Virus record (IMG/VR): IMGVR_UViG_3300024246_000001
Location: 3,513-67,512 of that record
Length of the DNA: 64,000 nucleotides
Origin: a virus
Taxonomy: Duplodnaviria > Caudoviricetes
Direction: 5' to 3' (one strand)
The notes beneath the pieces are model-generated. The model made no database searches. It saw nothing but the letters and a program-made list of their open reading frames with translations, and was not told where the DNA came from. A program made the position numbers and the translations under genes. Of this stretch, positions 22,336 to 49,266 are shown piece after piece (the stretch's first letter is position 1; every line of letters starts with the position of its first letter).

Positions 22336-22491
22336 TCAGGTCGGGATCTTCATGAGGATGAAGCTAAGCACGAAGAACGCCAGACCGTAGCACACGAGCC
22401 TGGAATGCCACGGGTGGGGCTGTGGCACGGCCGAACCGGCGACGATGAACAGGACGATCGAGATTATCTGGGCTACGAGGCTGAGAGTCAT
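22336..22491 (-). CDS. 51-aa two-TM membrane protein, holin candidate (absent from the ORF track)
   Basis: RBS AAGGAGA; MTLSLVAQIISIVLFIVAGSAVPQPHPWHSRLVCYGLAFFVLSFILMKIPT. Confidence 0.6.
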   Translation of the reverse strand: MTLSLVAQIISIVLFIVAGSAVPQPHPWHSRLVCYGLAFFVLSFILMKIPT

Positions 22492-22536
22492 GGAAGGTGG
22501 TCTCCTTTTTTGAATGAATGTGGCTTCGGTGCCACG

Positions 22537-22692
22537 TCAGTAGCTATCCGGCATGGACGTTCGGAAGGTCAGAATCTCCTCCGCCTCGACTGGCCGTTTG
22601 TCGGCCTTCACGCTACCATCCGGACGGATCTCAATCTCGTACCCTTGCTCCATCAGCTCTCCAAGTTCGTCGATCGATGGATGCGCGCTCAT
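22537..22692 (-). CDS. hypothetical protein
   Basis: ATGA coupling to the upstream gene. Confidence 0.45.
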   Translation of the reverse strand: MSAHPSIDELGELMEQGYEIEIRPDGSVKADKRPVEAEEILTFRTSMPDSY

Positions 22693-22883
22693 GCTGCCCA
22701 CCCGCGAGGAAGCCAGCCGTTCAGTTGCCATCCGGACTGTCTCGAAAACCAGATGGAGCGGCAACACCGCGTGCAGCCATACATCGGAATCCATTGCCCG
22801 TCTTCAGGGCGCCGGACGCTGATGCCGTCGAGCGGACCACTCACCGCATGACCGAAGATTCGGCACCACAACGCTTTGAACAT
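22689..22883 (-). CDS. hypothetical protein
   Basis: MFKALWCRIFGH...CTRC, a small-phage-protein pattern. Confidence 0.5.
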   Translation of the reverse strand: MFKALWCRIFGHAVSGPLDGISVRRPEDGQWIPMYGCTRCCRSIWFSRQSGWQLNGWLPRGWAA

Positions 22884-22913
22884 GCCGCGAAGTTTACCAC
22901 CTTCGGTGCCGCG

Positions 22914-23315
22914 TCAGTGCTTCTCCGGCACAGTCAGGATGTGCTCCGACTCCTCGGCCGTACGATCTCCTGGAGCGATCTTCGCTACCCGGCGCGTTTC
23001 GGCATCGTCCGCCATCCCGCCGAGCTTCATGGCGTTGGCAGTCCTCACTTCCTCGTGAACCACCTTCACATCATCGGCAATCGATTCCAAGCGCTCGGAG
23101 GTCTGGCCGTGCTCTACATGGCTTTCAATGCGCTTCTCATCGACCCGTTGGCGCGTCTTCCAACCCTGCCACGCGGCCGTAGCCGGGCCGATCGCGATGC
23201 CGAGGAAACCAAGGACGGCCAGGGTGATGTGCTCGACGGGCGCGGCCCACCACGGAGCGACGGGCGACGCGGCCACGATCGCGAGGAAGGTGATCGATTG
23301 AAGGAGGAGGATCAT
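22914..23315 (-). CDS. membrane protein (lysis-region candidate)
   Basis: Two N-terminal hydrophobic segments plus hydrophilic tail. Confidence 0.6.
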   Translation of the reverse strand: MILLLQSITFLAIVAASPVAPWWAAPVEHITLAVLGFLGIAIGPATAAWQGWKTRQRVDEKRIESHVEHGQTSERLESIADDVKVVHEEVRTANAMKLGGMADDAETRRVAKIAPGDRTAEESEHILTVPEKH

Positions 23316-28679: not shown

Positions 28680-29363
28680 TTAACCTCCGCCACCGGTGCC
28701 GCCAGCACCACCACTTGCGGGCTTGCCGTTGCCACCACCACCGTTGTTATTCTTGTACTCTTGCCACGCGTTGAAGAGGGCTTGGGCCATCTGCTGTTGC
28801 GCCGCGGATTGATCGCCGGCGGCAGTGCGGCCCATGTTGAAGGCTGATTGGTCGAGGGTGCCAGCGCCTAGTCCAGCGTTGGTGGACCCACCGGCGGCCC
28901 CAGAGCCGATGTTCGCGGCTTGCCCAGCCATCGCCGACAAGGCCGGGTAAGCACTCGCGCGTTCTGTGTCGATGACCCGCTGACCCTCGTCGGCGGCGCG
29001 GAACCCCAAGTCCGTGTTATATGCAGCCCCGGCCCCAGAGCGCGGGGCGAGGTTGCGCGACGCTGTGATGAGTGAGCCATACCGCGAGTTGATGTCAGCT
29101 AGTTGCGGGGCCACCGCGCCCATGATCTGGGAGCGGTCCCCACTCGCGAGCGCCCGGTAGTGCTCGAACGCCGGGTCGAAGGCCTCACCTGCGCGCTGGT
29201 AGTACTGGCCGATGTACGGGCTCAGCGTCTTCATGTTGGCCAGTTGCTGGTTGGCCAAGTCGGTCTGTGAGCGGATGAGGGGCTGCTGCTTTTTGGACGC
29301 CGAGCGGCTGCCCATGTAATTGAGCACTGCCCCGCCAGCGACGGCTACGGCGACCCAGCTCAC
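28680..29363 (-). CDS. small ejection (DNA transfer) protein, P22 gp7-like
   Basis: MSWVAVAVAGGAVL..GS.SASK start; Gly/Ala/Gln-rich. Confidence 0.7.
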   Translation of the reverse strand: MSWVAVAVAGGAVLNYMGSRSASKKQQPLIRSQTDLANQQLANMKTLSPYIGQYYQRAGEAFDPAFEHYRALASGDRSQIMGAVAPQLADINSRYGSLITASRNLAPRSGAGAAYNTDLGFRAADEGQRVIDTERASAYPALSAMAGQAANIGSGAAGGSTNAGLGAGTLDQSAFNMGRTAAGDQSAAQQQMAQALFNAWQEYKNNNGGGGNGKPASGGAGGTGGGG

Positions 29364-29872
29364 GAAGCCACCGCCAATTCGACCCGGCCGCCCAGCAACT
29401 CTTTGTAGAGCTGGTTGGCGGTGAGGTCGCTGCCGGGCATCGTGCGGCGTTCAATCAACATGTCTTCAAGTTCGGCGAGGTCGCGCGTGTTGGTCGGGTT
29501 GGGGTGGAAGGTGATAAACACAGCGTCCTCGTGCACCAGGATCACCCGCCGCGTGCCAGCCTTAGTGATCCCCACATGTGGGGCGCGCAGGTGCTCGACC
29601 TTGCCGCCGTCCTCTGGCACGAAGGTGGAGATGCTCCCGCGCATGAGCACGAACGGGTGCTCTAACTTGTGGACCTTCGTAGTGATGAGGGCGCCGGCAG
29701 GATTGTAAATCTCGCGGATGTACATCCCGGGCGTGAACCGGTGCACGAGCGGCATGTCGAGCAACTCGCCGCTGCCGAGCATGACTTGCTCCAGCTCGTC
29801 GATGGCCGCGTGCAGGTCGACGCCGCTATGCGTCTGCGTCAGTTCCCTTGTGGTCGTCACGCCCGCCCCCAT
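29360..29872 (-). CDS. conserved phage cupin-like protein
   Basis: HRFTPGMYIREI.NPAG...TKVHK.EH...GTRRVILVHED. Confidence 0.75.
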   Translation of the reverse strand: MGAGVTTTRELTQTHSGVDLHAAIDELEQVMLGSGELLDMPLVHRFTPGMYIREIYNPAGALITTKVHKLEHPFVLMRGSISTFVPEDGGKVEHLRAPHVGITKAGTRRVILVHEDAVFITFHPNPTNTRDLAELEDMLIERRTMPGSDLTANQLYKELLGGRVELAVAS

Positions 29873-30323
29873 CCCCTCTACCCCAAGGAACATGCTCCTC
29901 ACCACCCACCGGAATGGCTGGGTGCAAGGTGATCTCGTACAACACTCCGGTGCTCCGCTTGAGCCCGTTCTTGATCGCCGCGGCGTGGGCCGCAGGAGTG
30001 TCCTGCACCATCGAATACACGGTGATCGGGTAGCCCACCTCGTCGACCAGTTGCTCGAAGGACGCACGAATCAGGCACCCCAATTCGGTCACACTGAATG
30101 TGATGTCAAGACCCACCTTCGATACGAGTGGCTCGACGTGAAAGCACATCGTCTTGAACAAGGCCACCACAGGTTCTCCGGCAAGCTCCACCACGTAGGG
30201 GGTGGCGGCTGGGCCTGGCCATTCAAGCCCCCGAGCGATGAGCATGTCGGCGATGGCCGGCACGTCCTCGGGCACAGCTTGGCGGTAGGTGATCTCTGCG
30301 GTTTGGTCGGTCACGCTTGACAT
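29826..30323 (-). CDS. GNAT-like protein of the podovirus tail module
   Basis: ITYRQAVPEDVPAIADM start typical of GNAT folds; position. Confidence 0.5.
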   Translation of the reverse strand: MSSVTDQTAEITYRQAVPEDVPAIADMLIARGLEWPGPAATPYVVELAGEPVVALFKTMCFHVEPLVSKVGLDITFSVTELGCLIRASFEQLVDEVGYPITVYSMVQDTPAAHAAAIKNGLKRSTGVLYEITLHPAIPVGGEEHVPWGRGDGGGRDDHKGTDADA

Positions 30324-30341: not shown

Positions 30342-30713
30342 TCACCATGCCACCCATGTGCGCGTAGGCCCATCAAACACATACTTGATGTTGGTCGCAC
30401 GTACCCTGACGATCTGCCCGTCAACGGCAGTGGCGACCGGCGGCAGGTCGGCGAAGGTGGCCACTTGACTGGCGAGACCTGGCTGGGGCGGAGCCGCACT
30501 GGCTGTGCCACCTACAGCGAGTTGGCTGAGTAGGGTCCGGTCAGTAGGGGTGACGAGGCCGGTGCCTTGCTGGGCCTCGACCGCCGCAGTGCGCCCCTCA
30601 AGTGCGGCGATGCGGGTGAGCAGGTGGGCGTTCTGCGCGTAGGCTCCATCTAGCCGTTGGCGCAGGCGCTCCGGATCGGAGATGTCTTCGTGGGTGATCT
30701 GGATGCGGTCCAC
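30342..30713 (-). CDS. virion-associated hypothetical protein
   Basis: Coiled-coil plus LP......DGQIVRV...YVFDG..W motif. Confidence 0.6.
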   Translation of the reverse strand: MDRIQITHEDISDPERLRQRLDGAYAQNAHLLTRIAALEGRTAAVEAQQGTGLVTPTDRTLLSQLAVGGTASAAPPQPGLASQVATFADLPPVATAVDGQIVRVRATNIKYVFDGPTRTWVAW

Positions 30714-33700
30714 TAGATTTTGGCCCCACTCTCAAAATGCAAGTCGCCGAGTAAATTAGCGTTCTGCCACGGCGTGCCGATCGCCTTGCCGTCGAGTGCC
30801 ACATGATAGGCACCCCACCCTTTCATCTCAATCATGAATTCCTTCTTGAACAAGGCCACCCGCCCGGCCGTAGTGGCACACCGCAGCCGAGGCTGGATCA
30901 CCTTGAACTTCATGACCGAGCACCGGAACCGCAACGCCTTGCGCTGCCCGGCCGTGTTGGTCACCGCGTCGTAGAACACGGCCGCGTGCGCGAAGGTGCC
31001 GGCGCCGTCGAGGTCGAACTCAAGCACCAAATTGTCAGTCGAGCGCACGGTGATCTGGCCGTCACCGAGATATTTGTAGCCATCTATGCCGCCGTCCGTT
31101 TGCTGGCTCCACCACATATAGGCCAACTCAGGCTCGGGCTCACTGACATACTCCGTCTTCCACACCCGGCAGGCCGCGCTGGGCTCGCTCCGGATGAGGT
31201 GTGTGATGAAAGGTACGTCGAACGAGTACGCCTTAATTGCCCGGCCATTCGCCAGCACCGGGCCACTGTGCGCACCGGCTTGGATTGTGGTCTGTACGAC
31301 CTCCTCGTCCACGCGGATGAGCATGTTGACGGGCACGTTCGCCGTGTCGATCTCATACCTCACGCCCTGCACGAACCGGGCTTCCCCGAAGTCCGTCCAT
31401 TGGGCGATCTCGGTGCTTAGTGGCGGCGCGGGCTCGGCATCCAGCCTGTACCCCTCGAAGTCCCAAGCCGCAGCGTCGGTGGGTCGCAGCCTAGACCCGG
31501 TGATATACAGCCCGTCAGGGATTGGGTAATATACCTCGGTGAGTGCGGCGTGGTTGATGGACGCAATAGCGAATGTGGTGGTGGTGCCAACGTCCGTAGT
31601 GAAGTCCAACGTAGCTGCCCGCGCCACGCCGTAAGTGTCCGCATAAATCCACAATCCTCTGCAAAACTTGGCACCACCACCGCCTACCAGATGGTAGTCG
31701 TGCGCACGCAAGAGGGTGGTCTCGGGCCGGGGCTCCCACGAGGGTTGCCACAGATAGAGAATTGGCCGCAGGGTGGTGACCGAACTCGTGATCCGCAAAG
31801 CCACGTTCCTTGCCCGGCGTCCACTCCCAGCAGGGCTGCCGATGTCGAGCCGCTTCTGCCGCCGACCGGCCGCGTCGGACAGGGCGAACGGGCCGTCCGG
31901 GGTCAGACTGAAGTTGTCGTTGCCCGGCGTCACGTTGATGGTGGCCCCACCGGTGTCATAGTCGAGTAGGTAGTCGCCGACGTACTTGCTGACCACCGCA
32001 TCTCCGCCGTCCTCGGACCTCACCTGCAAGGTGGCCACGATCGCGGCCCCGGCGGCGTCGGCGGCGTTGCGCGCCAGCCTGTAGACCTTGCCGTCTACCC
32101 CGCCTAGGAGCACGCTTGTCACCTTGCGCCCCTCCTCGGCATAGTGGATTTGCGCCCCCACCGAATAGAGGTATGGCCGCCACCCGGCCTGCCCCGCGGC
32201 ATTGGCCCGCCGCACCAGTGTCCTGCGCGCCCCATTCGTGTCGAGGTAGTCGAACATGAGTTCACCACGGATGTTGGACAGGCGCAGGTTGGTCTCGTTT
32301 GACAAATCAGGCGGGAACAGGCCATTCGCTGCCACGCCCGCCGATCCCTCGTGTGGGAAGATCGTGCGCAAGTCCTCCGAGAGCACCTGCACCTGCCCGC
32401 CGGAGGTCAAGTGGATGCCGGTCCTGCCCATGAACGCCGCAGCAGGCCCCGTGTCGCACATCGCGAACCTATAAGGCATGCCCACAGCCCCGATGCGCCG
32501 CCACGCGAACAGGGCGCCTCCCGAGTCCGCTGTGGTGAATGCTGGGTCGATGGCGAATGCATATTCGGTGCTCCAGACGAACATGCGCCCGTCCGTGGTG
32601 ACCAGCATGTTCTGCAAGGTCTCCGACTCGATGTCGATCCAGTTCACGTCGCTCGTCGTGTCCGGGTCGTTCCCGTTCGTGTAGTAGAGCCGCCACGGGT
32701 TGGCCGAGTCGCCGAGGCCGAAGTAGAACCCGTGGAATGGCCCGGCGAAGATAGGCAGGCGCTGGTTCTCCAAGAGTGGCGCCGGGATCTCCCACGTGAC
32801 GCCAGCGCCGGTGTTGCCCATCGACTCAATGGTCTCAAAACCAAAGCCGTTGATGGGACGGTAGATCGTGTAGTCGAGGCCCGCGACCTTAACCGCAGTG
32901 CCCGGGGCGATGCTCGGTGGGATAGCGCCAGACGCCAACGAGAACAAAGTACCGGTGCCAGAGCCGGTGCCACTGATCGGGGCGCCAATTGTTGGCCACA
33001 ATTGGTAGTGGATGTTGCCCTCGGTGAGCGTCTGCACGGCGGCGAGGTCGATCTCGGCGAATATGTCACCGAACCCAATCACGTTGCCGGCGCCGGGGTT
33101 GACGGTAGACCCCATGATGGACCACCCAAGCAATTCGCCGCCGAATGTGGCGAAGTCGAGCTTGTCCACTTCAGCCGCCCCGGTTCCAGCCCCGACGACC
33201 AGGACTTGCTGGCGCTGCGGGCGCACCCCACCGCGGGACGCCGGGCTCCAGTTACTCACCACACCTGTGGAACTGTCACGATAGCGGTAACGGTAGATCC
33301 GCGGCATGCCCGCCGGGCTGACATCCGGGCCAAATCCCCCCGAGACGGTGAGACTGTCGACTTGGACAGTCACGGCGCCTGTGGCGACGACCTCAACCTT
33401 GAGCGCAGCCACATTCGCCAAACCCCGGGAGAAGTCCGATCCCACGCGCCCCACACCCGGGGTGAGGAGCTCACTGATCCGGAAACTAACCTCCGCGTAG
33501 GAACTCTGCCCCGAACTGCCTTGGTCCTGGCTGTTGCCGGGGTTCGGCCCGACGAGGCTGGGGCCGGGGCCTAGTGGTGTGAGCCTGCGATCCCCCGCAG
33601 CCGTGCGGTCTATGTTCGTGAGGTTGCCCGACATGTCGACGCTGTTGCGTGCGGCCTGCTCACCCGCCGCCTGCGCCCGCTGGTCGTCGATGATGGTGCG

Positions 33701-35074
33701 CTGGGCTTGGACGGCCGCATTGTCAAGGGCGGTCTGCGTACCCTTGGTGACCGGCACGAGGTCATTCTGGCGGATCGAGTGGAGTAGGTAGTTCTTAGTG
33801 TGATCAGTCGCCGCGAACACGTTATTGGTACCCGAATCAATGTCGAAGTAGAGCTTGACCTCGGTGATCAGTTCGGGCTTGTCGGCGAACAGGGAGATGT
33901 GCACGATGTCATCTGGTTTGGTGGCCACACCAGCCGCAATTGATGACATATCAATAGGGGTGGCCGCACCCACGTTGCGCGTGATAGAGCCGGTACCTGC
34001 CGCCACAGTGAATTGGAGGGAGGTGGCCGTAAGTGGGTCGGTAGCCACGTGTGTGCCAGAGAAATAGGCGCGAAAACTGGCCACCACCTGCGCCGGGTCT
34101 CCGGCTGCTATCGTGCCACTGACCGGCGTGCACAAGAACGAGGTGAACCCGACCTTAGTGCGCTCCACGGCTAGCACGCGCACGTATTCAGGTCCGCCAT
34201 GGGCACCAGCGGCATTGAGCAGGACCATGCCGTCCACGTCGATCTGGTCGATGGGCGTGGTGAGGTGAATCCACGCGTAGGCGCCGTCGTACTTGATGCC
34301 CGCAATTGTGGTGGCAGCAGAACCCTGATAGACGCCCTGCACACGGAATGTTTCCGGGTTCGCGCCGGTGACGCCGAGTTCCATACCCGCGCCGATGTCG
34401 GCCATAGATGATGGGCGCACGTTGGCCCAGCCGGTGTGGGTGAGCAAATCTTCATAGAGGATGGCGGTGATGGTACGCGTGGCCACGTTGACGCGGGGGA
34501 CTGCGGCCAAGGCTGCTGCGGTGCCACCCACCAACCAATTCGCGGCTACTAGCATCGGGTCGATGATCTTCGCGGCGGGCTGGGCGGCGAGGGATGCTGT
34601 GGGGAATAATGCCGGGCGCGCGAGGCCCACCTGCTTGAGGTTCCCGGCCACGTCCACCTTCTGCATCTTGAGCCGGTCGCACAGGTAGCACCACGGTTTG
34701 ACCGACTCAGTGGGCTGGTGGACAGCCATGGAGAGGGGGTCGCCGGACCACCCGGAGCCTAGGTCCACAGGCGTGGTGAGGGCGACATCCACGATAGCCG
34801 CGTGCGTGCCAGTGCCCGCGATGATGGCCTCCACCAAAGAGCCGGTGGAAGTGTCCTGCATGCGCTTGAGCGAGTGAACCGGGGACTGGCCTGCCACGAG
34901 GGTGATCCCGTTGCCTTGGCCCGGCCGGATGGTGAGCGCGTTGTCGATCTCCGGGCGCCAGTTCTCCATGAACACGGCAAACCCGTCGCGCACCCGGTCC
35001 ACGGGCGCATTGAGGTCGACGCCGATGTGGTCGAACAGGTATTGCTTGCGCTCGAATTGGGGGTCGTTGGGCAT
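30713..35074 (-). CDS. tail nozzle/tail tubular protein B-like (P22 gp10/T7 gp12 position), about 1450 aa
   Basis: TAATG-coupled start MPNDPQFERK; beta-propeller-like LYYT.G.DPD motif; position. The ORF-track extension to 35677 is a shadow frame. Confidence 0.7.
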   Translation of the reverse strand: MPNDPQFERKQYLFDHIGVDLNAPVDRVRDGFAVFMENWRPEIDNALTIRPGQGNGITLVAGQSPVHSLKRMQDTSTGSLVEAIIAGTGTHAAIVDVALTTPVDLGSGWSGDPLSMAVHQPTESVKPWCYLCDRLKMQKVDVAGNLKQVGLARPALFPTASLAAQPAAKIIDPMLVAANWLVGGTAAALAAVPRVNVATRTITAILYEDLLTHTGWANVRPSSMADIGAGMELGVTGANPETFRVQGVYQGSAATTIAGIKYDGAYAWIHLTTPIDQIDVDGMVLLNAAGAHGGPEYVRVLAVERTKVGFTSFLCTPVSGTIAAGDPAQVVASFRAYFSGTHVATDPLTATSLQFTVAAGTGSITRNVGAATPIDMSSIAAGVATKPDDIVHISLFADKPELITEVKLYFDIDSGTNNVFAATDHTKNYLLHSIRQNDLVPVTKGTQTALDNAAVQAQRTIIDDQRAQAAGEQAARNSVDMSGNLTNIDRTAAGDRRLTPLGPGPSLVGPNPGNSQDQGSSGQSSYAEVSFRISELLTPGVGRVGSDFSRGLANVAALKVEVVATGAVTVQVDSLTVSGGFGPDVSPAGMPRIYRYRYRDSSTGVVSNWSPASRGGVRPQRQQVLVVGAGTGAAEVDKLDFATFGGELLGWSIMGSTVNPGAGNVIGFGDIFAEIDLAAVQTLTEGNIHYQLWPTIGAPISGTGSGTGTLFSLASGAIPPSIAPGTAVKVAGLDYTIYRPINGFGFETIESMGNTGAGVTWEIPAPLLENQRLPIFAGPFHGFYFGLGDSANPWRLYYTNGNDPDTTSDVNWIDIESETLQNMLVTTDGRMFVWSTEYAFAIDPAFTTADSGGALFAWRRIGAVGMPYRFAMCDTGPAAAFMGRTGIHLTSGGQVQVLSEDLRTIFPHEGSAGVAANGLFPPDLSNETNLRLSNIRGELMFDYLDTNGARRTLVRRANAAGQAGWRPYLYSVGAQIHYAEEGRKVTSVLLGGVDGKVYRLARNAADAAGAAIVATLQVRSEDGGDAVVSKYVGDYLLDYDTGGATINVTPGNDNFSLTPDGPFALSDAAGRRQKRLDIGSPAGSGRRARNVALRITSSVTTLRPILYLWQPSWEPRPETTLLRAHDYHLVGGGGAKFCRGLWIYADTYGVARAATLDFTTDVGTTTTFAIASINHAALTEVYYPIPDGLYITGSRLRPTDAAAWDFEGYRLDAEPAPPLSTEIAQWTDFGEARFVQGVRYEIDTANVPVNMLIRVDEEVVQTTIQAGAHSGPVLANGRAIKAYSFDVPFITHLIRSEPSAACRVWKTEYVSEPEPELAYMWWSQQTDGGIDGYKYLGDGQITVRSTDNLVLEFDLDGAGTFAHAAVFYDAVTNTAGQRKALRFRCSVMKFKVIQPRLRCATTAGRVALFKKEFMIEMKGWGAYHVALDGKAIGTPWQNANLLGDLHFESGAKI

Positions 35075-36450
35075 TATTGTTGCGCCTCCACGCCCTTCTT
35101 CGCCGGCGGCTCGTCGCGCCGCGGCTTGGCCTTCTCTTGCGCTTGGGTGAAGATGCGCTGATCGTCCTCGAACACGCTGATCGCCGACAAGCGCTGGTTG
35201 CGGGCTTGCGCCGCCGCGAAGAACGCCTGCGCCCCGGGCTGCGTGGCTGCCCATTCCCGCCCGGCGATCTTGAACATCAAGAGGTGCTCGACGAATCCTA
35301 TGAACAGGTCCATATATTCGCGTGGGACTTGGATGAACGCGCCAGGCGCTGCGGGGATAGGCGCGTTGGTGGAGATGGTCACTGTCAAAGCCGCGTCGGC
35401 GGTGGGCGGGAATGCCACAGCCACCAGATTGATCCCCACCGGCGCCACGAACTGCGGCACGCCGGGCCTGTTCTGCCAGTACTGCATGGTCGGCCCAGCG
35501 TCGAGCGACACTAAGGAGGAGAACTGGACCACCTTGTCGTTGAACCGGGCGTCGATCAACACCGCAGCGGTCTTGGCGGCTTGCACGCCCAACTGGTACA
35601 TCGACTCGCAGTGCCCTGCGCGGGCGAAGTCGCGGCCGGGGCCATCGGCGTTCATGAGGTCCGCCAGCGCCCCCCACCGGATGAACGGGGTGAAATCGTC
35701 CGGCACCCCGAGCAGCACGCCCACTGTCGGGTCGAGCGCGGCGCCTGTGTCGACAGTAAGGAGGTCAAGTGTGCCTATGTCAGAGTTCGGTGGCCCCAAT
35801 TGCAGGATCGACGGGGCGTATTGGTTGTAGGCGTAGGTGCGCGGCAGGCCGGGCTCCAAGTTCCACGCCGCCGACTTGCCCCGCAAGGACCAGTTCGAGG
35901 CCGCCCACAACGGGACAGTTTTACCGTCCGGGGTGGTCCACGCAGCGCGCCGGATATCGATTATTTGCTGGTTGATCGGCACCTGACCTCCCGCCGCTGG
36001 GTCGATCACGCCGGGTGCGGCGGGGATGGGCTGGTGGCGCGTGATCCGGCAACCTGTTTCGAGTAGGAACTGGTCGCGCCGGCGCTGGAGGGCCTGCACC
36101 ACCACTGGCATGGAGAACTGCGCACTGCCGGTCCACACGGTGGGGCTCTTGGGCTCCAAGAGGGAGTATTGGATGGACCCGACCAATTCCTGGTCCAACA
36201 CGGTGTAGCCGCGCAAGGCGGGGAAGAGGGTCGGCAGGTCGGCGAACGCGGTGCCAGCGGGCACGGTGGCGGTCTGGGTGTCCTGCCACAAGCCGGTCAA
36301 GGCACTGAAGGTGCGCAGGGCTTCAATGAGGGCTACGTCGATCTCGTCGGCGCCAAACCTGACGAATGGCTGGCTCGCGGTCTCGGCGAGGCGCAGGGCC
36401 ATGATGGCCTCGAACTGCGCGCGGGTGGTGTGCGTGTACGTGTTGGCCAT
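35074..36450 (-). CDS. head-tail connector/tail tubular protein A-like
   Basis: Helical N-terminus, PRTYAY, FIRWGALADL motifs; position. Confidence 0.6.
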   Translation of the reverse strand: MANTYTHTTRAQFEAIMALRLAETASQPFVRFGADEIDVALIEALRTFSALTGLWQDTQTATVPAGTAFADLPTLFPALRGYTVLDQELVGSIQYSLLEPKSPTVWTGSAQFSMPVVVQALQRRRDQFLLETGCRITRHQPIPAAPGVIDPAAGGQVPINQQIIDIRRAAWTTPDGKTVPLWAASNWSLRGKSAAWNLEPGLPRTYAYNQYAPSILQLGPPNSDIGTLDLLTVDTGAALDPTVGVLLGVPDDFTPFIRWGALADLMNADGPGRDFARAGHCESMYQLGVQAAKTAAVLIDARFNDKVVQFSSLVSLDAGPTMQYWQNRPGVPQFVAPVGINLVAVAFPPTADAALTVTISTNAPIPAAPGAFIQVPREYMDLFIGFVEHLLMFKIAGREWAATQPGAQAFFAAAQARNQRLSAISVFEDDQRIFTQAQEKAKPRRDEPPAKKGVEAQQ

Positions 36451-42013: not shown

Positions 42014-42083
42014 CAACACTTTTTGTCACCGGTTGACACTTTTCGTCACTGACACTTTTTGTCACTATTGACATTTATTGTCA
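42014..42083. promoter_or_regulatory. four TGACA-N5-TGTCA operator-like boxes
   Basis: 42014-28, 42034-48, 42050-64, 42069-83, upstream of scaffold/MCP. Confidence 0.7.
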
Positions 42084-42500
42084 CCTCATCGGCGGCGGAG
42101 GAGGCGGACCACCCATCCCCATGCTGGGGCCACCACCTCCGCCCGGTGGACCTCCTTGGCCCGGCGGCGGCATCCCGGCGTCCTGCGGGGGCATGCCAGT
42201 CCCGCCCTGGGCCAGATCCGCGAGGCTCCCGGCCATCATGTCGCGTGCCTGGCCGATGACCGGGGCAAAGAGGGCCGCGATGTCGGGCCGGACCTGCGCG
42301 AGGCTGGCGATGCGCTTCTGGATCTCCATCATGTCACCCATCACCGAGGCGATCGGCGAGCCGCCAGCCCCGAGCAGGTGGGCAGCATTGGAGCCACCAG
42401 CAGTAGGCGGCGGCTTGGCGCTCCTCAGCGCCGGCACAGGTGGACCACTGCGCAGCGGGTCGTCTTTGGGGTCGGTGCTGCTCATACCAATATTAAGCAT
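42081..42500 (-). CDS. Pro/Gly-rich hypothetical protein
   Basis: Type of protein commonly seen between portal and scaffold. Confidence 0.6.
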   Translation of the reverse strand: MLNIGMSSTDPKDDPLRSGPPVPALRSAKPPPTAGGSNAAHLLGAGGSPIASVMGDMMEIQKRIASLAQVRPDIAALFAPVIGQARDMMAGSLADLAQGGTGMPPQDAGMPPPGQGGPPGGGGGPSMGMGGPPPPPPMR

Positions 42501-42523: not shown

Positions 42524-44467
42524 TTACCTGATTCTGATCCACGCGCGAATAGCCAGAGTCGTCCCATTGCCGATGCTCGCGGGCCAGCTCGCCTCGGCGC
42601 CGGTAGCGTCGAGTAGTCGCAGGGTCGTACGATTCTGGGTGACGCCGTTAATATTGACCGTACTCACCGACAAGGACTCTCGTACATTCGCGCCGGTCGT
42701 GTTGTCCTCGATACGGAGAATTCCAAATGGCACGGCACCTTGGGCAGCGGTGTCCAGCACAAGCGAGGAGCCAAAGATTCCAGCACCATTCACAAACGCC
42801 ACGTTGCCGGGATCAAGGGTCGGGGTGTTAGCGTAGGCGTTGCTGAAACCATTGATCTTATCGGCCTCGGCCGAGCCGGACTGGTTGATGAGGTCCGAGA
42901 TGATGCGGTGCTGCAACACTCCGCCAGCCGTGCGCGTGACTTGGATTACGAACGACTGGTCGGCACCGAACTTCAGTGTTTCGACGCGGCCCTTGCGGAT
43001 GATCGTGCAATCCGAGACGTTGAGCGCCGGGTTGGCGAAAAACGGTGCGGCGTCGCTGTTCGGGGCCGATATCACTACGTCCTGTGATTGGCCCAGGAAG
43101 TATTGCCCGGCGGTGTTGGCCTCGGTGTAGACCCGGCTGAACTGCGCACCGATGAACGCGGTGTTATTGTCGGCAACCGACACGCAGATCGCTACGAGGC
43201 TATTGAAATCTATCTGTCCGCCATCAACAACCGGGCCGTATAGTCCATCGAAGCGGAGGCCTACGGGATTGCCACGCGACACACAGTCAATGAGGTGATT
43301 GACGTTATTGTTGGTAGCTCGTTCTTCATAGTAACCGGCGCCGAGGCCGATCGCGAAGTCCAACCCAGCGGCTGAGACTTGCGGTTTGTTGTCCGTATTG
43401 ACCATAGCCGTGATCGTGGTGGCGGCTACGGACTCGACCTGGATGACCTGTGGTGAGTTGGGCGCGGTGAAATGGATGCGGATCAGTTCACCACGGCGGA
43501 TGCCAAGCGTGGTGAGGTCTGGTGCGCCGGCGAAGGTGATAGTGGCGTTGCCGGCGATGGTCGTGCAAGTCCCGGCGATGACGGTACGCACGCCTGACGT
43601 ATAACCCGCGATGACGCCCGTCGTGGCGCGCAGAGTCCCGTTGCCGACAAAGAAGCAGCGCGTGAAGGTGTTCGTGTCGTTGAGGTTTGGGTCTGTGCCT
43701 AAATGGAGCCCGTCCGTAATGCCATTGAGGAAGTTGCAGTCCTCCGCCGAGCTCCACGTGAACCCGTTGAGGTAGACCGCATAGGTGCCCAGCCGGTTGG
43801 CGTCGAACGTGATGCCTGATATTTTCACCCGGTAAGCATTTGTGGTGGTCAGGCAGGAGCGCGCCGAGCCGGTCAGCTTGAAGCGCGTGCCTTGGGCCAC
43901 GTCGTACTTGCCTGGGATGCCGTGCAGGATCTCGCCGTGGGCAGTGGCCGGGACGGAGAGTTCGGCCGACAGGAGATATTCCGCGTCCGGTGGGACGATC
44001 GTGATCCCGAGGGGGGAATTCGCGTTGATGAGCGTCTGGATGGTCGCGAAATCGTCCCCGCCGGAAGGGGGTGGTGGAATAGCTATGTTGGCCCCGCTGC
44101 CGCCGCCGCTGCCACTGCCGAACGAGGTCTGAGTCCACGGTATTGGGATGCCCGCGCCGGAGAAGCGCACGTCATAGGTGGGTGAGTCGCCATAGAAAGA
44201 CAGGAATGCCACCGCGTCAGTCGTGCATGGGCATACTTTGGGCGTGCCGGCGAGATCACTGAAGATGGTGGCTGGGGTAGAGGTGCCAGCGTTGAACACG
44301 TCGTATTGCGCTAGGGGGTAGGACGCCATGCCGCTGGCCGACGAGCCAGACAGGGTGGTCATGAAGGTCTGCCCACCACGGGTGGCATAGCCTTGGAATT
44401 TGGTGCGCGCCCACAGGGGGGTGGCCACCAGCAGGAGAACTGTGAGTAAAAGCGCCTTAATTCTCAT
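42524..44467 (-). CDS. tailspike-like right-handed beta-helix protein with signal peptide
   Basis: SGGDDFATIQTLIN...Y.L... pectate-lyase-3-like start; Asn ladders; N-terminal MRIKALLLTVLLLVATPLWA. Confidence 0.7.
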   Translation of the reverse strand: MRIKALLLTVLLLVATPLWARTKFQGYATRGGQTFMTTLSGSSASGMASYPLAQYDVFNAGTSTPATIFSDLAGTPKVCPCTTDAVAFLSFYGDSPTYDVRFSGAGIPIPWTQTSFGSGSGGGSGANIAIPPPPSGGDDFATIQTLINANSPLGITIVPPDAEYLLSAELSVPATAHGEILHGIPGKYDVAQGTRFKLTGSARSCLTTTNAYRVKISGITFDANRLGTYAVYLNGFTWSSAEDCNFLNGITDGLHLGTDPNLNDTNTFTRCFFVGNGTLRATTGVIAGYTSGVRTVIAGTCTTIAGNATITFAGAPDLTTLGIRRGELIRIHFTAPNSPQVIQVESVAATTITAMVNTDNKPQVSAAGLDFAIGLGAGYYEERATNNNVNHLIDCVSRGNPVGLRFDGLYGPVVDGGQIDFNSLVAICVSVADNNTAFIGAQFSRVYTEANTAGQYFLGQSQDVVISAPNSDAAPFFANPALNVSDCTIIRKGRVETLKFGADQSFVIQVTRTAGGVLQHRIISDLINQSGSAEADKINGFSNAYANTPTLDPGNVAFVNGAGIFGSSLVLDTAAQGAVPFGILRIEDNTTGANVRESLSVSTVNINGVTQNRTTLRLLDATGAEASWPASIGNGTTLAIRAWIRIR

Positions 44468-44477
44468 AGGCAATTTG

Positions 44478-46724
44478 CTACCTCATCCTGCGGCAACGAA
44501 TTGTGCCACCTACCTTGATTGTCGAGACAGTGAAAGTCGCCTGCGAAACGAGGAATACTGGCGTCGACCCAGAAGCGCTGATTCGCACTGTAGGAACAAC
44601 CCATGTTGCTACTGCGGAGCCGGTCGGCACTATGGCCGAGGTCTCATAGTCGAAGTACGAGTCCTGTGCCGGGAGTGTTGCCGTCGTCGTGCTGATCCCA
44701 CCTGCTAGGTTCGTGATCGAAGTCGTCGCCCCGAAGGTGAAGTTCACGACGCCGGTACAGTCCCAATCTCCAGCGGTCAATGTGATGTTCGTGTTCGTTC
44801 CGACGTTCGCGGTGCTGCCGGTCGAGAGCGAGGTTGTGTTCGCCGCGACGGTTCCGGAGATCAGTTCGCCAACGTCACCAGCAGTCGCTGAGTCGTTCGT
44901 CTGGGAACCACGTAGCGAAACCGCTTGCGTCGATCCGCTGATCGTAAGCGCCCGCGTGCCGCCCGTTCCCATAATGACCGGATTAGCGCCGGTAGTGTCG
45001 ATGAGTAGACCGTTACCTGTCGATTGAAAAAGTTCTACCCAGTTCGCCAGCGTGACTCCGAGACGAGTAGCCGTTCGTCCAGCTTGGTGTGCTTGCAGTC
45101 TCCCAAGCACCGTCGCTCCGCCTAAAACCTCGAAGGCCGAGAGGGAACCAGTGTCCGTCGCGTCAGGATTCGAGGCGCGGATGATCGTCGCACCGTTGAA
45201 ATTGTCCGTAGCAACCAACATTTCCCCGGCCACTGCGGACGGCGCCGCACCAACACCGGCGTTGCCTGAAGTCTGGACCGTTGTCGCGGTAGGAGCGCCG
45301 AGAGCTGGAGCCGTGAAATTAATATCCCCATCAACCACCACACCGAATGCTGGATTGCCCGCCGCATTACCGTGCAGCACAGTAGTCGTCGTCCCTTGAT
45401 TGGCATGTTGCGCGCTAGCGAGCGTATCTGTAGTGCATGTGGGGACAAGAGATGTCGATACAGCACTCACGAATTGATTAGTACATGTTGCACCGGCGCC
45501 GGGGATAGTTACTGTCCCGCCGCTGGTGAATGTCACGCGCGGCGTGTAACCACCAGCGTTGATCTGTGAAGAGAACACTAGATTGGATGAGGGGTCAGCC
45601 GCTCCTTGAACAGGCTGGACTTCGGCGATCCAATCCACCGCTTCGCTCTGCGCAACTGCGTTTGTGCGCCAGCCCTGAGCGGTGAAGCGCAGGCGCGGGG
45701 ACCATTGTTGAGCCCCGGCGGACGCTGTACCATTAGTGGTTAGGATAACGGCATCCGTGGAAGTGGCGGCGATAGCGTTTATCTGTTGGATCTGCGTCCC
45801 GGTTCCATGCCATCCTGAAGAGTCAAACCAACCGACGGTAGTATTCGCGGTAACACCTAGCTGACCGGCGCCGCGGCGGAACAAGCCGAGGGTAGGTTCG
45901 GAGGTAAAACCGAAAGCGGCCGGGTTGACCCCACCGTCGCCAGCCTGCACGTCGCTTGTAGCAACTAGATTGTGCGTGGCGGTGGCATCACCGCTGTTCG
46001 CAATCGTAAACCGAGTGTCAATGGCCGTCGAGGTGGATGGAGCGGCAGTGGTGAGGGCAGCATCAGCTACGTTATCGGTGAAAGTAGTGGCAGTGTTGTT
46101 GGCGATCGTCGTGACGAGCTTCCACGCACCTGTGTCTCCGGCAACAGTGCGGTAGAGTTTGCGCGAAGTAACAAAGATATTGCCAGTAGCTATGTTCGTC
46201 ACCGCCACCTGACCGTTCACCGCATCGTCGGCAACGGTTACCACATTCGACTTGGTGGAGGGTACGGACTCCCCGCCCGCAGTGACGAAAGTGACCTTAT
46301 AGGAGTGTGTGCCCACCTCGACCAAGCCAGCCCCAGCCCCGGCTAATGCTCCCATGGGCGCGGTGGGTGCGGCCGTAGAGGCTTTGGTCAGCAAGTCCGT
46401 GCTCGCGGCCAAGCCCAACACACCCACCGAATCGAGATACATCCCATTCGTAGTGGAATTGGTGAACGAATAAGATGGTGCGGCGGTAGTTCCATTCGGG
46501 GCGAGCAGGGGGTAGGTGGGTATGCCCGTGCTGAGCGCCGTCCACGTGTTGGCCGCCGAACATATTTTGAGCGCGGCCGTATCGCTGCGGTAGAAGATGT
46601 TAATTGAGGTTGGCAGGCAAGTTGTGGGGTCGACTGTGCCATTGCGGATAGACACGGCGGGCTGCTGGGCCTGCAATTGACTGGCCACCAACACTAGTGT
46701 GATTAAAAGTAGTAGTTTGCGCAT
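44478..46724 (-). CDS. tail-fibre-like protein with signal peptide
   Basis: APSYSFT..T..G.Y, GS.TND.A.AGDVGE and TP.FLV.QATF...GGTIRCRRMR phage fibre motifs; N-terminal MRKLLLLITLVLVASQLQA. Confidence 0.7.
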   Translation of the reverse strand: MRKLLLLITLVLVASQLQAQQPAVSIRNGTVDPTTCLPTSINIFYRSDTAALKICSAANTWTALSTGIPTYPLLAPNGTTAAPSYSFTNSTTNGMYLDSVGVLGLAASTDLLTKASTAAPTAPMGALAGAGAGLVEVGTHSYKVTFVTAGGESVPSTKSNVVTVADDAVNGQVAVTNIATGNIFVTSRKLYRTVAGDTGAWKLVTTIANNTATTFTDNVADAALTTAAPSTSTAIDTRFTIANSGDATATHNLVATSDVQAGDGGVNPAAFGFTSEPTLGLFRRGAGQLGVTANTTVGWFDSSGWHGTGTQIQQINAIAATSTDAVILTTNGTASAGAQQWSPRLRFTAQGWRTNAVAQSEAVDWIAEVQPVQGAADPSSNLVFSSQINAGGYTPRVTFTSGGTVTIPGAGATCTNQFVSAVSTSLVPTCTTDTLASAQHANQGTTTTVLHGNAAGNPAFGVVVDGDINFTAPALGAPTATTVQTSGNAGVGAAPSAVAGEMLVATDNFNGATIIRASNPDATDTGSLSAFEVLGGATVLGRLQAHQAGRTATRLGVTLANWVELFQSTGNGLLIDTTGANPVIMGTGGTRALTISGSTQAVSLRGSQTNDSATAGDVGELISGTVAANTTSLSTGSTANVGTNTNITLTAGDWDCTGVVNFTFGATTSITNLAGGISTTTATLPAQDSYFDYETSAIVPTGSAVATWVVPTVRISASGSTPVFLVSQATFTVSTIKVGGTIRCRRMR

Positions 46725-47137
46725 TATAGTGGTCCGTAGTGGATCTGGAAGATGTCACCGGTCTTGCCGGATATGGCGGTCGTGCGGAAGTCATACAGTC
46801 CCACCCCACCACTGCCAGGAAAATCTACATATAGACCCGGCAACAGGATGCTGCCGTGCGCCGTGGCAATCACATTGGAGGTCTTGAAATTGGCCGCTAT
46901 GTCGGTAGACTCAAAGCCTATGCGGGCCGGGTTGTGCGTGGCGTCCCCGGCGTTGTTGCCGCCTTCGGCGTGGACGCGCAGCCACAGGTGCCGGGAACGT
47001 AGCTTGCGCGCGTCATGCGAAGATGGGTTGACATCATCCGCGTCAAGGATCTGCGGTATAGCGGTGCCGAGTGTGGCAAGATAGGTGATCGACTTCGGCA
47101 CGTAGTCGGCGTCGAGGACAACAGTGAGCGTACGCAT
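46724..47137 (-). CDS. hypothetical virion protein
   Basis: RBS AAGGAG; TAATG coupling to the fibre gene. Confidence 0.6.
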   Translation of the reverse strand: MRTLTVVLDADYVPKSITYLATLGTAIPQILDADDVNPSSHDARKLRSRHLWLRVHAEGGNNAGDATHNPARIGFESTDIAANFKTSNVIATAHGSILLPGLYVDFPGSGGVGLYDFRTTAISGKTGDIFQIHYGPL

Positions 47138-47151
47138 GATGGGGGTTCTCC

Positions 47152-49266
47152 TTATGACTCGGCTACTGCCCCGGAGGGCGTGAAAGATGGTGGGGCCTGT
47201 GCTGTGGGCGGGTGTCCTGCTGTCGAAGCAAGGATGCCCAGACCGAGGATCTTCTCGGCCTGCAAGCGCGAGGTGATGTCGGTGGCCCACGAGGGCGGCT
47301 TGCCCACGTTCGGGACGCCCCACACTTCGAGCAGGGTCCAGTGGTCGATGAGGCCCATGCGTGCGCCTTGCAGGTAGAACATGCGTTTTGATGTGGTGGC
47401 CACGTCAAGGAGGGTGCCCTCGGCCACGTCGAAATTGAAGTATTGGAGGAACTGCTTGTTGCGCACGTGTTCGGGGTCCGGGCCGCGCTCCCACGCCTCG
47501 GGCTTGAGCCGATGCACACGCTTAGTGCGTGGTGACTTATGCACAATTGGGTTGCCATAGGCATCAGCAAGCCCTGTCTGTATCTCGTCATACTCGCCCG
47601 TAGGCGAATCGAAGCTCTCGTAGTCCTCGTCCTTGATGAAGTCCGGCATGAGGTCGCCCGACTTGTAGTCCCAGTCTTCCCAAGTCATGCCGTCCGCACC
47701 GAGGAGCCTGAGCCGCAATTCGAGTGGGTAGAACTGCATGAACATGCTGGCGAGCATCATGGCGAACTCGCGGATGAACACTTCGAGGGATCGCGAGCGG
47801 GCGCGCACCAGAGGCGTCATGGCTTGGATGAGTTGCTCGATGGTGTCGCCCGAGGGCATCTGGTTGAGTTCGGCCAGGCCGCGCAGATTCGCGACGCCGG
47901 AGAGCTCGTCCATCGAGTCGAGCAGGAACTTGAGGTGCTCGGGGATCGCGGCGTCGAGCGGGGGCTCAGGGACGATCTGGAACGCCTTGCCGGGCTCCAG
48001 CCCGGGGTTGACACCCAATTGCATGCCGGACAAGCGTGTGTTGAACCCCTTGGCCAAATTGGGGCTGATGGCCTTCTTGTCGTAGATGAAGTTGCGCTTG
48101 GCCGCCCGGCGGATGTGGTCCTGGATCGCGCGCAAGTTCTCGTCGACATCCCGCTGCAAACTGAGCAGCGGGTGGATTGGGGATGTCCCCCACCTTGCCC
48201 AGGCCCAGGTGTCAAGGGTAACCTTGCACACCGGGAGCATACCGTGGTGGAAGTGGCCCGGGCCGTCCTCCAGGATGCCGTAGCGGGTGGCCACGATGCG
48301 CCGGCCGAATGGATAGAGCCGCTTGCCGGGCTCCGCGAGGTAACTCCACGGCGAGGCTGGGATGCGCTGGCCCGGCTCATCCGGGTCGTCCGCCCATGGA
48401 CCCATCTCCTTGGCCACCTTCGACTCGTTCACGCTGAAATCATGTAGGTAGACTGTGAACTCGTCGGTCACCGGGATCTTACCGCCGATGGCCTGTGCTG
48501 GCGCCCCGCCGAAGAGGGCCGCGTTCGGGGCGCCTTCCGACATGAGGGCCTCCTCGGCCTCGCGCAGCCGGCGCGCGCTCGGGGACTCCTTCTCATACCC
48601 ATACCTGTCGATCTTGAGGTTCTTGACCGCGTCCTTGCCGTACACGCGCTCGAAGTAGTCGATCGGCCGCTCCCGGCGCACCCACGCCCCGCGGGCGTTC
48701 TGCACGCTGCGCTTGTCCCCGCCTTGGAAGCGGATCATGCCGCAGTCGCGCGGGTCCTCGGCCACCGCGTCGATGTCGCCCTGCGTGGTGATGCCAGTGT
48801 CGAGGTCACGCGGCCCCAAGGCGTCAGGGTTGTAGAACATGTGGATGTAGCCGGTGCCTGCCACGAGCACGTAATCTATGGAGTCGCGGAACACCTGGTC
48901 GATCCCGCGCCGCAGGAACCACGATTTGGAGAGCTTGCCGAAGATGTCGGCTTGGCGCTGGTAGCGGTCGGCGTTCGTCGAGTAGGTCCAGAAGGGCTTG
49001 ATGTCGGTGAGGAGGGCACGGAGTTCGAGGGCGATGGTCTGGAGCTTGTTGAACCGGCCGCGCGAGAGCTTCGGGGAGCGGATGCGTGGCTCGTCGATGC
49101 CCATGATGGCGTCGATGGACTCGCCGATGTGGTCGTAGGAGTGCTCGGCCTTGTTGGCGGACACGCCCTCCTGGATGGCGTGGCCGATCCAGTCCATGAC
49201 CTCCTGCTCGTGTTCGGCAAGGCCCGGATTACTTGGAGCTACTGACCGCGGATTACGTCTTGCCAC
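47152..49266 (-). CDS. portal protein (P22-like)
   Basis: 704 aa after the terminase; D..VAGTGY.H..Y, RR.VAT.YGIL.DGP..F.HG..P, D.LSGV..L.G motifs. Confidence 0.8.
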   Translation of the reverse strand: MARRNPRSVAPSNPGLAEHEQEVMDWIGHAIQEGVSANKAEHSYDHIGESIDAIMGIDEPRIRSPKLSRGRFNKLQTIALELRALLTDIKPFWTYSTNADRYQRQADIFGKLSKSWFLRRGIDQVFRDSIDYVLVAGTGYIHMFYNPDALGPRDLDTGITTQGDIDAVAEDPRDCGMIRFQGGDKRSVQNARGAWVRRERPIDYFERVYGKDAVKNLKIDRYGYEKESPSARRLREAEEALMSEGAPNAALFGGAPAQAIGGKIPVTDEFTVYLHDFSVNESKVAKEMGPWADDPDEPGQRIPASPWSYLAEPGKRLYPFGRRIVATRYGILEDGPGHFHHGMLPVCKVTLDTWAWARWGTSPIHPLLSLQRDVDENLRAIQDHIRRAAKRNFIYDKKAISPNLAKGFNTRLSGMQLGVNPGLEPGKAFQIVPEPPLDAAIPEHLKFLLDSMDELSGVANLRGLAELNQMPSGDTIEQLIQAMTPLVRARSRSLEVFIREFAMMLASMFMQFYPLELRLRLLGADGMTWEDWDYKSGDLMPDFIKDEDYESFDSPTGEYDEIQTGLADAYGNPIVHKSPRTKRVHRLKPEAWERGPDPEHVRNKQFLQYFNFDVAEGTLLDVATTSKRMFYLQGARMGLIDHWTLLEVWGVPNVGKPPSWATDITSRLQAEKILGLGILASTAGHPPTAQAPPSFTPSGAVAES

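Follow-up and report, generated by a model that had tools for sequence, protein, structure and literature searches.

We examined two adjacent late genes in a 64,000-nucleotide window of phage DNA (bases 3513-67512 of one 67,512-bp contig; all positions below are window coordinates) from a 67.5-kb soil phage whose genome is complete. They encode a fibre (P0002, 748 residues, 44478..46724, minus strand) composed of a signal-like leader, a Cys-paired N-domain, a mosaic shaft and a TNF/C1q-like tip, and a spike (P0122, 647 residues counted from the ATG, 42524..44467, minus strand) composed of a leader, a conserved N-domain, a Gly/Ser linker and a tailspike-like body. The evidence described below supports the view that both leaders carry every sequence hallmark of cleavable Sec / signal peptidase I signals. 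Our preferred reading, which we hold tentatively and at somewhat less than an even chance, is that fibre and spike are virion receptor-binding proteins made as cleavable Sec pre-proteins, matured in the periplasm and added to the particle at lysis. Tailed-phage particles are, in the textbook view, assembled wholly in the cytoplasm, and virion proteins normally lack export signals. Leaders on the only two host-recognition proteins identified in this phage, and on over a thousand uncultured relatives, clash with that view.

The first-pass annotation of this DNA had described a basic n-region, a Leu-rich h-region and an A-x-A-like cleavage site at both N-termini, and all three are present on the minus strand. 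The fibre leader (residues 1-19, 46668..46724, minus strand) divides into MRK, LLLLITLVLVA and SQLQA, with predicted cleavage before QQ (MRKLLLLITLVLVASQLQA/QQ, the slash marking the predicted cut). The spike leader (residues 1-20, 44408..44467, minus strand) divides into MRIK, ALLLTVLLLVA and TPLWA, with predicted cleavage before RTKFQGY (MRIKALLLTVLLLVATPLWA/RT). Both n-regions have a net charge of +2 ahead of the hydrophobic core. The h-regions are 11 residues each, shorter than a transmembrane helix (the family median by our own rule is 14), and the predicted sites read L-Q-A/Q in the fibre and (P)L-W-A/R in the spike. AlphaFold predicts a helix over residues 2-14 of the fibre leader. The leader codons are AT-rich in a GC-rich genome, as illustrated by CTA CTA CTT TTA in the fibre leader. 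A lipoprotein signal was rejected for both proteins because there is no lipobox Cys, and a twin-arginine translocation (Tat) signal because there is no twin arginine. A fibre with a Cys-paired tip in a Caulobacteraceae metagenome-assembled genome (MAG; L013:1518-2975) begins MKHPVRRRGVLRSGAAALAAALAAQPAAA/A, has RRR and looks Tat rather than Sec.

Both start codons are secure. The fibre ATG overlaps the stop codon of an upstream 137-codon gene (TAATG), a layout kept in the close relative L011, and the spike ATG lies 10 nucleotides past the fibre stop, with an alternative TTG at 44473, two codons upstream. The next Met codons of both genes are far downstream. The possibility that the true starts lie downstream of the hydrophobic segment, raised in the first-pass annotation, was rejected in view of the overlapping or abutting starts and the lack of a nearby Met. 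A consensus scan, the only kind of search applied, found no promoter-like or terminator-like sites on the minus strand between 41800 and 47400. This, taken with the overlapping or abutting starts, shows that both genes are ordinary members of the late operon and that the hydrophobic N-termini belong to the proteins. It could still be argued that the leaders are artefacts, either wrong starts or chance hydrophobic N-termini devoid of biological meaning, since high-GC genomes yield many long spurious extensions of open reading frames (ORFs) and our signal caller has a background of its own (see below). With the starts fixed as described, and with leaders recurring in hundreds of independent homologues that share a conserved cleavage profile, we regard this as highly improbable.

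Conservation of the signal was seen in the homologues of both proteins. Signals were called by a home-made, crude rule, which flagged 12 of the 226 ORFs of at least 100 codons in the phage's own genome (5%). The fibre has 242 homologues at E <= 1e-3; the same rule flagged a leader in 69 of 124 fibre homologues, so that leaders occur above chance. The pattern [AGSC]Q just past the hydrophobic core was found in 53 of the 69 leader-bearing homologues as against 12% of background windows. In three backbone relatives the leader character is kept while the leader sequence has diverged, and all fibre- or spike-like ORFs of the relatives carry one, whereas the portal, capsid, adaptor-like and nozzle-like proteins have none. 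Gln at position +1 of signal peptidase I substrates is known as the Q-rule of Bacteroidetes (Bochtler et al. 2018, PMC5837995). The fibre (A/QQ) and the 53 homologues follow this pattern and the spike (A/R) does not.

For the spike, residues 1-130 were compared by phmmer with 1.84 billion representative sequences, which gave 1237 clusters at E <= 1e-3; in almost every case the alignment begins at the first residues of the matching sequence. Leaders were counted in the top 150 representatives of these clusters. A hydrophobic segment preceded the conserved mature start A/R.K.QGY.E.GG in 139 of them, and the cleavage profile drawn from 125 sequences had A at -1 in 76, A, L or V at -3 in 77, P at -4 in 41, and R at +1. 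Ten of the 150 were leaderless and began with M(A)(R/K).K.QGY, i.e. at the predicted cleavage site. A further 15 phage contigs in IMG/VR, 40-64 kb long, also contain the spike N-domain; they are distant kin of the phage studied here (identity 22-43% for the portal, 25-35% for the capsid and about 35% for two tail proteins). Their G+C content at third codon positions (GC3) ranges from about 0.3 to 0.85, hence their hosts probably differ widely. Clear spike leaders are present in 8 of the 15 contigs; L021 and L027 have none. In these two the spike ATG overlaps or abuts the upstream stop codon, inspection of the DNA disclosed no leader hidden in another frame, and the proteins begin at the predicted cleavage position while occupying the spike slot of the leader-bearing orthologues. 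In L024 (12496-18610) the spike gene is followed by three consecutive large ORFs (713, 476 and 849 residues), all with signal-like N-termini and two with Gln at +1.

That fibre and spike are of the receptor-binding type, as the first-pass annotation had proposed, agrees with what could be learned from their distal parts. The fibre begins MRKLLLLITLVLVASQLQAQQ, contains GSQTNDSATAGDVGE and terminates CRRMR. Its tip (residues 616-748, 44481..44879, minus strand) is modelled as a TNF/C1q-like jelly roll with a Cys656/Cys744 pair (DWDC ... CRRMR), at a predicted local distance difference test score (pLDDT) of about 70-87. VIA-align matched the tip model to the cyanophage A4 tail (9k09_A, Z 10.2, root-mean-square deviation 2.9, 125 aligned residues) and to the A-1(L) short tail fibre (8ke9_A, Z 8.7). 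Over the C-terminal 140 residues, identity to the tail-fibre tips of cultured phages is 32-39%. Tblastn with the tip retrieved 58-61 phage records (E 3e-11 to 1e-3), mostly Autographiviridae tail fibres, and tips of this type form the ends of genuine tail fibres in Autographiviridae of Pectobacterium, Klebsiella and Dickeya as well as in other cultured phages. Taken together, model and homology show the fibre to be a receptor-binding protein with a predicted TNF/C1q-like tip. Common fibre motifs make up the shaft in mosaic fashion, and the mid-section of the AlphaFold model is poor. The N-domain (residues 20-66, 46527..46667, minus strand; Cys36 and Cys55; model pLDDT 77-89) is conserved with the phage backbone and is common to L011, P0008, P0009, P0014 and P0026, each time directly behind a leader. 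In place of a particle-anchor family of the T7 gp17 type or similar, of which Pfam and PHROGs returned none, the fibre has its leader and this 47-residue Cys-paired domain. GC3 is lower in the fibre gene than anywhere else in the late operon (0.62, down to 0.50 in one 300-nucleotide block; neighbours 0.75-0.90), which is consistent with recent mosaic acquisition of shaft modules.

The spike begins MRIKALLLTVLLLVATPLWARTK and is likely to be tailspike-like. Its N-domain (residues 21-118, 44114..44407, minus strand; R.K.QGY.E.GG ... TVTVY.AGT.T.ATIYSD..GT...NPF) is a candidate tail-attachment module, and its body (residues 130-647, 42527..44080, minus strand) is an exchangeable module that holds seven of the nine spike Cys residues. 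The nearest Atlas (language-model) clusters of the spike are head-binding-domain tailspikes with PF12708 (score 0.93), and PF12708 is present in two of the five relatives aligned with the spike (best E 9e-11). The earlier designation as a beta-helix depolymerase, like the receptor-binding nature of the spike, has indirect support only. The tailspike clusters and the PF12708 relatives speak for it, but the spike itself has no Pfam match even at E <= 10 and no PHROG match, PF09008 is unmatched, and the AlphaFold model, computed from a five-sequence alignment, is unusable (pLDDT 34). The spike may be a depolymerase, and in our preferred reading it is a protein of tailspike type that binds or cuts polysaccharide. 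Among cultured phages the spike has no match. When both proteins were compared with PHROGs and Pfam, a repeat at fibre residues 112-231 was the only hit.

L011 is a close backbone relative (portal 84%, capsid 91% identical) with the same order of genes as here (portal, 137-residue gene, fibre, spike, 139-residue gene, scaffold); its fibre and spike have matching leaders and N-domains and quite different distal parts. L002 (IMGVR_UViG_3300024182_000004), a 50.9-kb phage contig with an unrelated backbone, carries both distal modules. Its spike-body protein P0123 (548 residues, leaderless) is 82% identical from spike residue 130, and its fibre, in which a leader is present, is 85% identical to ours over the distal 320 residues. 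Read in this way, a constant N-terminus joined to a swappable C-terminus is the classic signature of particle-anchored receptor-binding proteins. In L002 (8129-13367) the spike body and fibre tip form a cassette immediately preceded by a serine recombinase/invertase-like gene and followed by the terminase genes, an arrangement reminiscent of invertible fibre segments.

The first-pass annotation had stressed that the two genes sit in the head module and not beside the tail genes. This is true in this phage, where they lie between the portal and the scaffold/capsid genes, but the placement is not conserved. In the distant relatives the spike gene is found behind the portal, as here, or, more often, directly adjoining the adaptor-like and nozzle-like genes. 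Judged by these gene orders, portal-adjacent placement is a quirk of this sub-lineage.

Fibre and spike together contain 15 Cys in 1395 residues as compared with 17 in 6400 residues of 16 other late proteins, a four-fold enrichment (p = 1.5e-4). The six Cys of the fibre form three local pairs. The tip pair (DWDC...CRR) was present in 9 of 12 leader-bearing and in none of 5 leaderless tip proteins, counts that ignore relatedness. The Cys content and pairing speak for folding outside the cytoplasm, where fibre and spike may form disulfides.

An explanation that would leave assembly where it is commonly placed is that both are virion proteins assembled in the cytoplasm, the virion pool not being exported. 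The leader would then tether the protein transiently to the inner membrane, slow its folding, or be a segment that assembly removes or buries, or else each gene would give dual products, a leaderless one for the particle and another that is exported. This agrees with all known tailed-phage assembly. The leaderless orthologues work with an identical mature N-terminus, the leaderless P0123 is close in sequence to the spike body and as rich in Cys, and GTG and TTG codons in frame within both leaders make internal initiation possible. However, the short hydrophobic cores and the family-wide -3/-1 profile with its helix breaker fit selection by signal peptidase I and not a tether, and the Gln +1 bias among fibres and the restriction of the tip Cys pair to leader-bearing proteins point to extracytoplasmic processing and oxidation. 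No Shine-Dalgarno-like sequence precedes the internal GTG or TTG codons, and no start codon is conserved family-wide at the cleavage site. It is also established that Sec export is still active late in infection for spanins and signal-anchor-release (SAR) endolysins (review PMC6116005). Weighing these observations, we consider cytoplasmic assembly with an unexported virion pool a possible explanation, though one on the doubtful side.

Leader-bearing fibres with the same type of tip also occur in cultured phages, namely gp48 of Burkholderia phage KL4, gp35 of Xanthomonas phage PBR31 and a fibre of a Mu/P2-like prophage of Paraburkholderia xenovorans LB400. Gp19 of Burkholderia phage BcepC6B has the same tip domain and was grouped with them, its own N-terminus not having been read. 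The tips of these four are 37-38% identical to the one studied here. The KL4, PBR31 and LB400 proteins resemble our fibre in having a Sec-like leader directly before the shaft, and those of KL4 and LB400 also in the DWDC...CRR Cys pair, but these cultured-phage fibres are short (270-355 residues). Each gene is an extra to an ordinary tailspike or fibre gene and lies either between the tailspike and holin genes or between those for baseplate wedge and fibre. No remark on the leaders was found in the published accounts consulted, nor did we find a paper describing signal peptides on tail fibres or tailspikes. In a scan of genome contigs with the fibre, tip matches of 37-42% were obtained in Alpha- and Betaproteobacteria and in one actinobacterial MAG, with no host indicated.

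The cultured examples lend some weight to a third explanation, in which fibre and spike are exported without becoming part of the virion. As free or envelope-bound proteins they would bind or cut receptors, and the receptor-binding protein of the virion itself would be encoded elsewhere and so far unrecognised. Possible roles are receptor masking or destruction on the infected cell and debris (superinfection exclusion, progeny protection), loosening of exopolysaccharide for release, and cell-cell sticking. A functional Sec signal by default sends a protein away from the particle being assembled, cultured temperate phages and the prophage carry the leader-bearing fibre as an extra gene, sometimes adjoining lysis genes, and several tail ORFs here are unannotated. 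Signal-peptide proteins that follow the Q-rule are also encoded by genes of unknown function in Porphyromonas gingivalis phages, where they were interpreted as envelope modifiers with no tail parts named (Matrishin et al. 2023, PMC10367356). Bacteria, too, have exported enzymes with a tailspike fold, as exemplified by the trimeric WceF of Pantoea stewartii, which acts on the exopolysaccharide of its own cell (PMC7949094); unlike the spike, WceF is bacterial, has a Tat rather than a Sec signal and is devoid of a virion-anchor-like N-domain.

Several observations argue against the non-virion explanation. The constant N-terminus with swapped C-termini is a particle-anchored signature, and in relatives the spike gene, including that of leaderless orthologues, occupies the podovirus spike slot by the adaptor-like and nozzle-like genes. 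Exported moron and exclusion proteins (lambda Lom and Bor, T5 Llp, Cor type) are recognised as autonomous expression units, and neither gene forms such a unit; moron identity was rejected because both are packed tightly into the late operon and the consensus scan gave them no promoter-like or terminator-like site of their own. No other fibre or spike candidate turned up in the genome, many of whose tail ORFs are unannotated. The PHROG 'short tail fibre / tail fibre adhesin' match at 29360-30067 (minus strand) was rejected as the real fibre, being a small protein unrelated to the fibre and, on inspection, unlike a fibre in appearance; the match covers residues 76-206, and the listed start of this protein is probably over-extended upstream. 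Since fibre and spike are the only candidates found and are packed tightly in the late operon, virion parts are favoured over a pure exclusion or masking accessory, and we think it unlikely that the two proteins are exported for a purpose outside the virion.

We therefore return to receptor-binding proteins that are exported and later join the particle. In this scheme fibre and spike would leave through SecYEG late in infection, and cleavage by signal peptidase I would create a new N-terminus, Gln in the fibre and Arg in the spike. Folding, trimerisation and disulfide formation would take place in the periplasm, where the pool present before lysis may act on nascent envelope polysaccharide. 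The proteins would encounter DNA-filled, tailed particles only once holin lesions and lysis mix the compartments, and their conserved N-terminal domains would then dock on the adaptor/nozzle region, as P22 tailspikes join finished heads last. In the work of Israel, Anderson and Levine of 1967, P22 tailspikes are said to join last and to be addable in vitro, which makes late docking conceivable. Export, cleavage and late docking are all inferred, and among the options listed by the first-pass annotation attachment to virions during egress would fit best.

A number of points weigh against this scheme. We know of no tailed phage that assembles virion parts from the periplasm, and the prior is accordingly low. 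Joining after lysis would suffer from dilution, and the signal caller used here is crude. Leaderless orthologues indicate that the mature spike can work from the cytoplasm, and as leaderless P0123 is about as Cys-rich as the leader-bearing spike, Cys content is not discriminating for the spike. Only a weak connection could be drawn between the spike N-domain and known head-binding domains: the best match of its profile in the PDB was a tailspike N-fragment (9vyg) at E 0.1, hhalign with the PBR31 tailspike N-terminus covered 35 columns at E 0.02 with a probability of only 2%, and a PF09008 cluster was reached in the Atlas at 0.85. The KL4, PBR31 and LB400 leader-bearing fibres are present in addition to an ordinary fibre or tailspike. 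Moreover, with many tail ORFs unannotated, a further receptor-binding protein is possible.

Known phage proteins offer partial parallels. Like P22 gp9-type tailspikes and T7 gp17-type fibres, fibre and spike have a backbone-linked N-terminal module and exchanged distal modules, the spike gene has adaptor and nozzle neighbours in relatives, and the motif AGT.T.A.IYSD..GT...NP is common to the spike N-domain, the N-terminal domain of the PBR31 tailspike and the solved tailspike 9vyg. Unlike them, the present proteins have a Sec-type leader ahead of the N-domain, whereas proteins of the P22 and T7 types lack a signal peptide, their assembly taking place in the cytoplasm. The PF09008 head-binding domain of the P22 type is unmatched here, and the genes lie between portal and scaffold. 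A similar design, signal peptide, conserved beta-rich N-domain of ~130 residues, phage-fibre-like trimeric shaft and exchangeable tips, has been described for the mosaic adhesive trimer (MAT) fibres of Bdellovibrio bacteriovorus (Caulton et al. 2024, PMC10769870). The likeness is one of design only; MAT fibres are cell-encoded and displayed on the cell surface, whereas the genes studied here are in the late operon of a complete phage genome. Phages also use host Sec late in infection for lysis proteins such as fOg44 Lys44, SAR endolysins and T4 RI (PMC6116005), while fibre and spike are of the receptor-binding type.

If the scheme is extended to the relatives, a large and mostly uncultured group of podophages would have its whole host-recognition apparatus, fibres and tailspikes, exported by Sec, cut by signal peptidase I, oxidised and often pyroglutamate-capped in the periplasm, and mounted on finished particles at the onset of lysis, so that assembly would span two compartments. 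We regard this generalisation as conceivable but rather doubtful. If true, the receptor-binding proteins of many soil and environmental phages would mature outside the cytoplasm, adding a compartment to the assembly pathway of tailed phages, and Cys-paired, possibly pyroglutamate-capped fibres suited to harsh habitats would be explained. Such fibres and depolymerases would be better expressed in the periplasm, with their leader, in biotechnology, and annotators would be warned against discarding signal-peptide proteins as non-structural. If the leaders do not export the virion pool, a function has yet to be assigned to what would be a new and widespread N-terminal device of phage receptor-binding proteins. 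Existing isolates (KL4, BcepC6B, PBR31) and the LB400 prophage allow a direct test. This work adds orthologues without a leader whose first residue falls at the predicted cleavage point, shows how large the spike N-domain family is, documents that both distal modules have been exchanged with an unrelated phage, and lists cultured phages in which the matter can be put to the test.

The left arm of the genome, on the plus strand, contains helicase, GroEL-like chaperonin and UDG-PolA fusion genes. The late operon, on the minus strand, comprises a terminase-like gene and genes for a portal of the P22 type, the scaffold, the capsid, tail proteins and large internal proteins. The portal (47152..49266, minus strand) matches PF16510 P22_portal and phrog_156. 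In the interval between portal and fibre lies the 137-residue gene (46724..47137, minus strand) whose stop overlaps the fibre start, and between spike and scaffold a 139-residue gene (42081..42500, minus strand). Their L011 copies, in the same positions, are 80% and 71% identical, respectively, and neither gene has a Pfam or PHROG family match.

The 458-residue tail protein (35074..36450, minus strand), which we take to be an adaptor from its position and N-terminal pattern, has homologues 34-39% identical in L019-L024, and in L020-L023 the spike gene adjoins the homologue. The start of the following 1453-residue gene (30713..35074, minus strand) overlaps the stop of the 458-residue gene and was mapped through the N-termini of the ORFs that follow the homologues of the latter in relatives. 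Its product has no leader and is presumably a nozzle protein, judged by a T7 gp12-type N-terminal pattern. Sequence searches of three tail proteins against the PDB gave no matches. An HNH endonuclease gene (PF13392, 36460-36897, minus strand) lies within the tail block between a 106-residue gene and the adaptor-like gene, and a homologue is present at the end of L011.

Two very hydrophobic small ORFs at the end of the late operon (22336-22491 and 22914-23315, minus strand) are holin candidates; PHROGs identified no endolysin among the tested ORFs neighbouring them (22336-23315). In the early arm, three small ORFs on the plus strand have export-signal-like N-termini: 1-289 (which begins 37 nucleotides before the window), 704-994 and 1327-1926. 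The signals read MKTVLFVAVLVLFAIPLSA/QS, with Gln at +1; MTRIPLTALIAIALAGC/G, which is lipoprotein-like; and, from an internal Met of the third ORF, MKRLTIAALLITLATSAEA/RW. The three ORFs have no PHROG match, and their products may be envelope modifiers, lysis or exclusion proteins.

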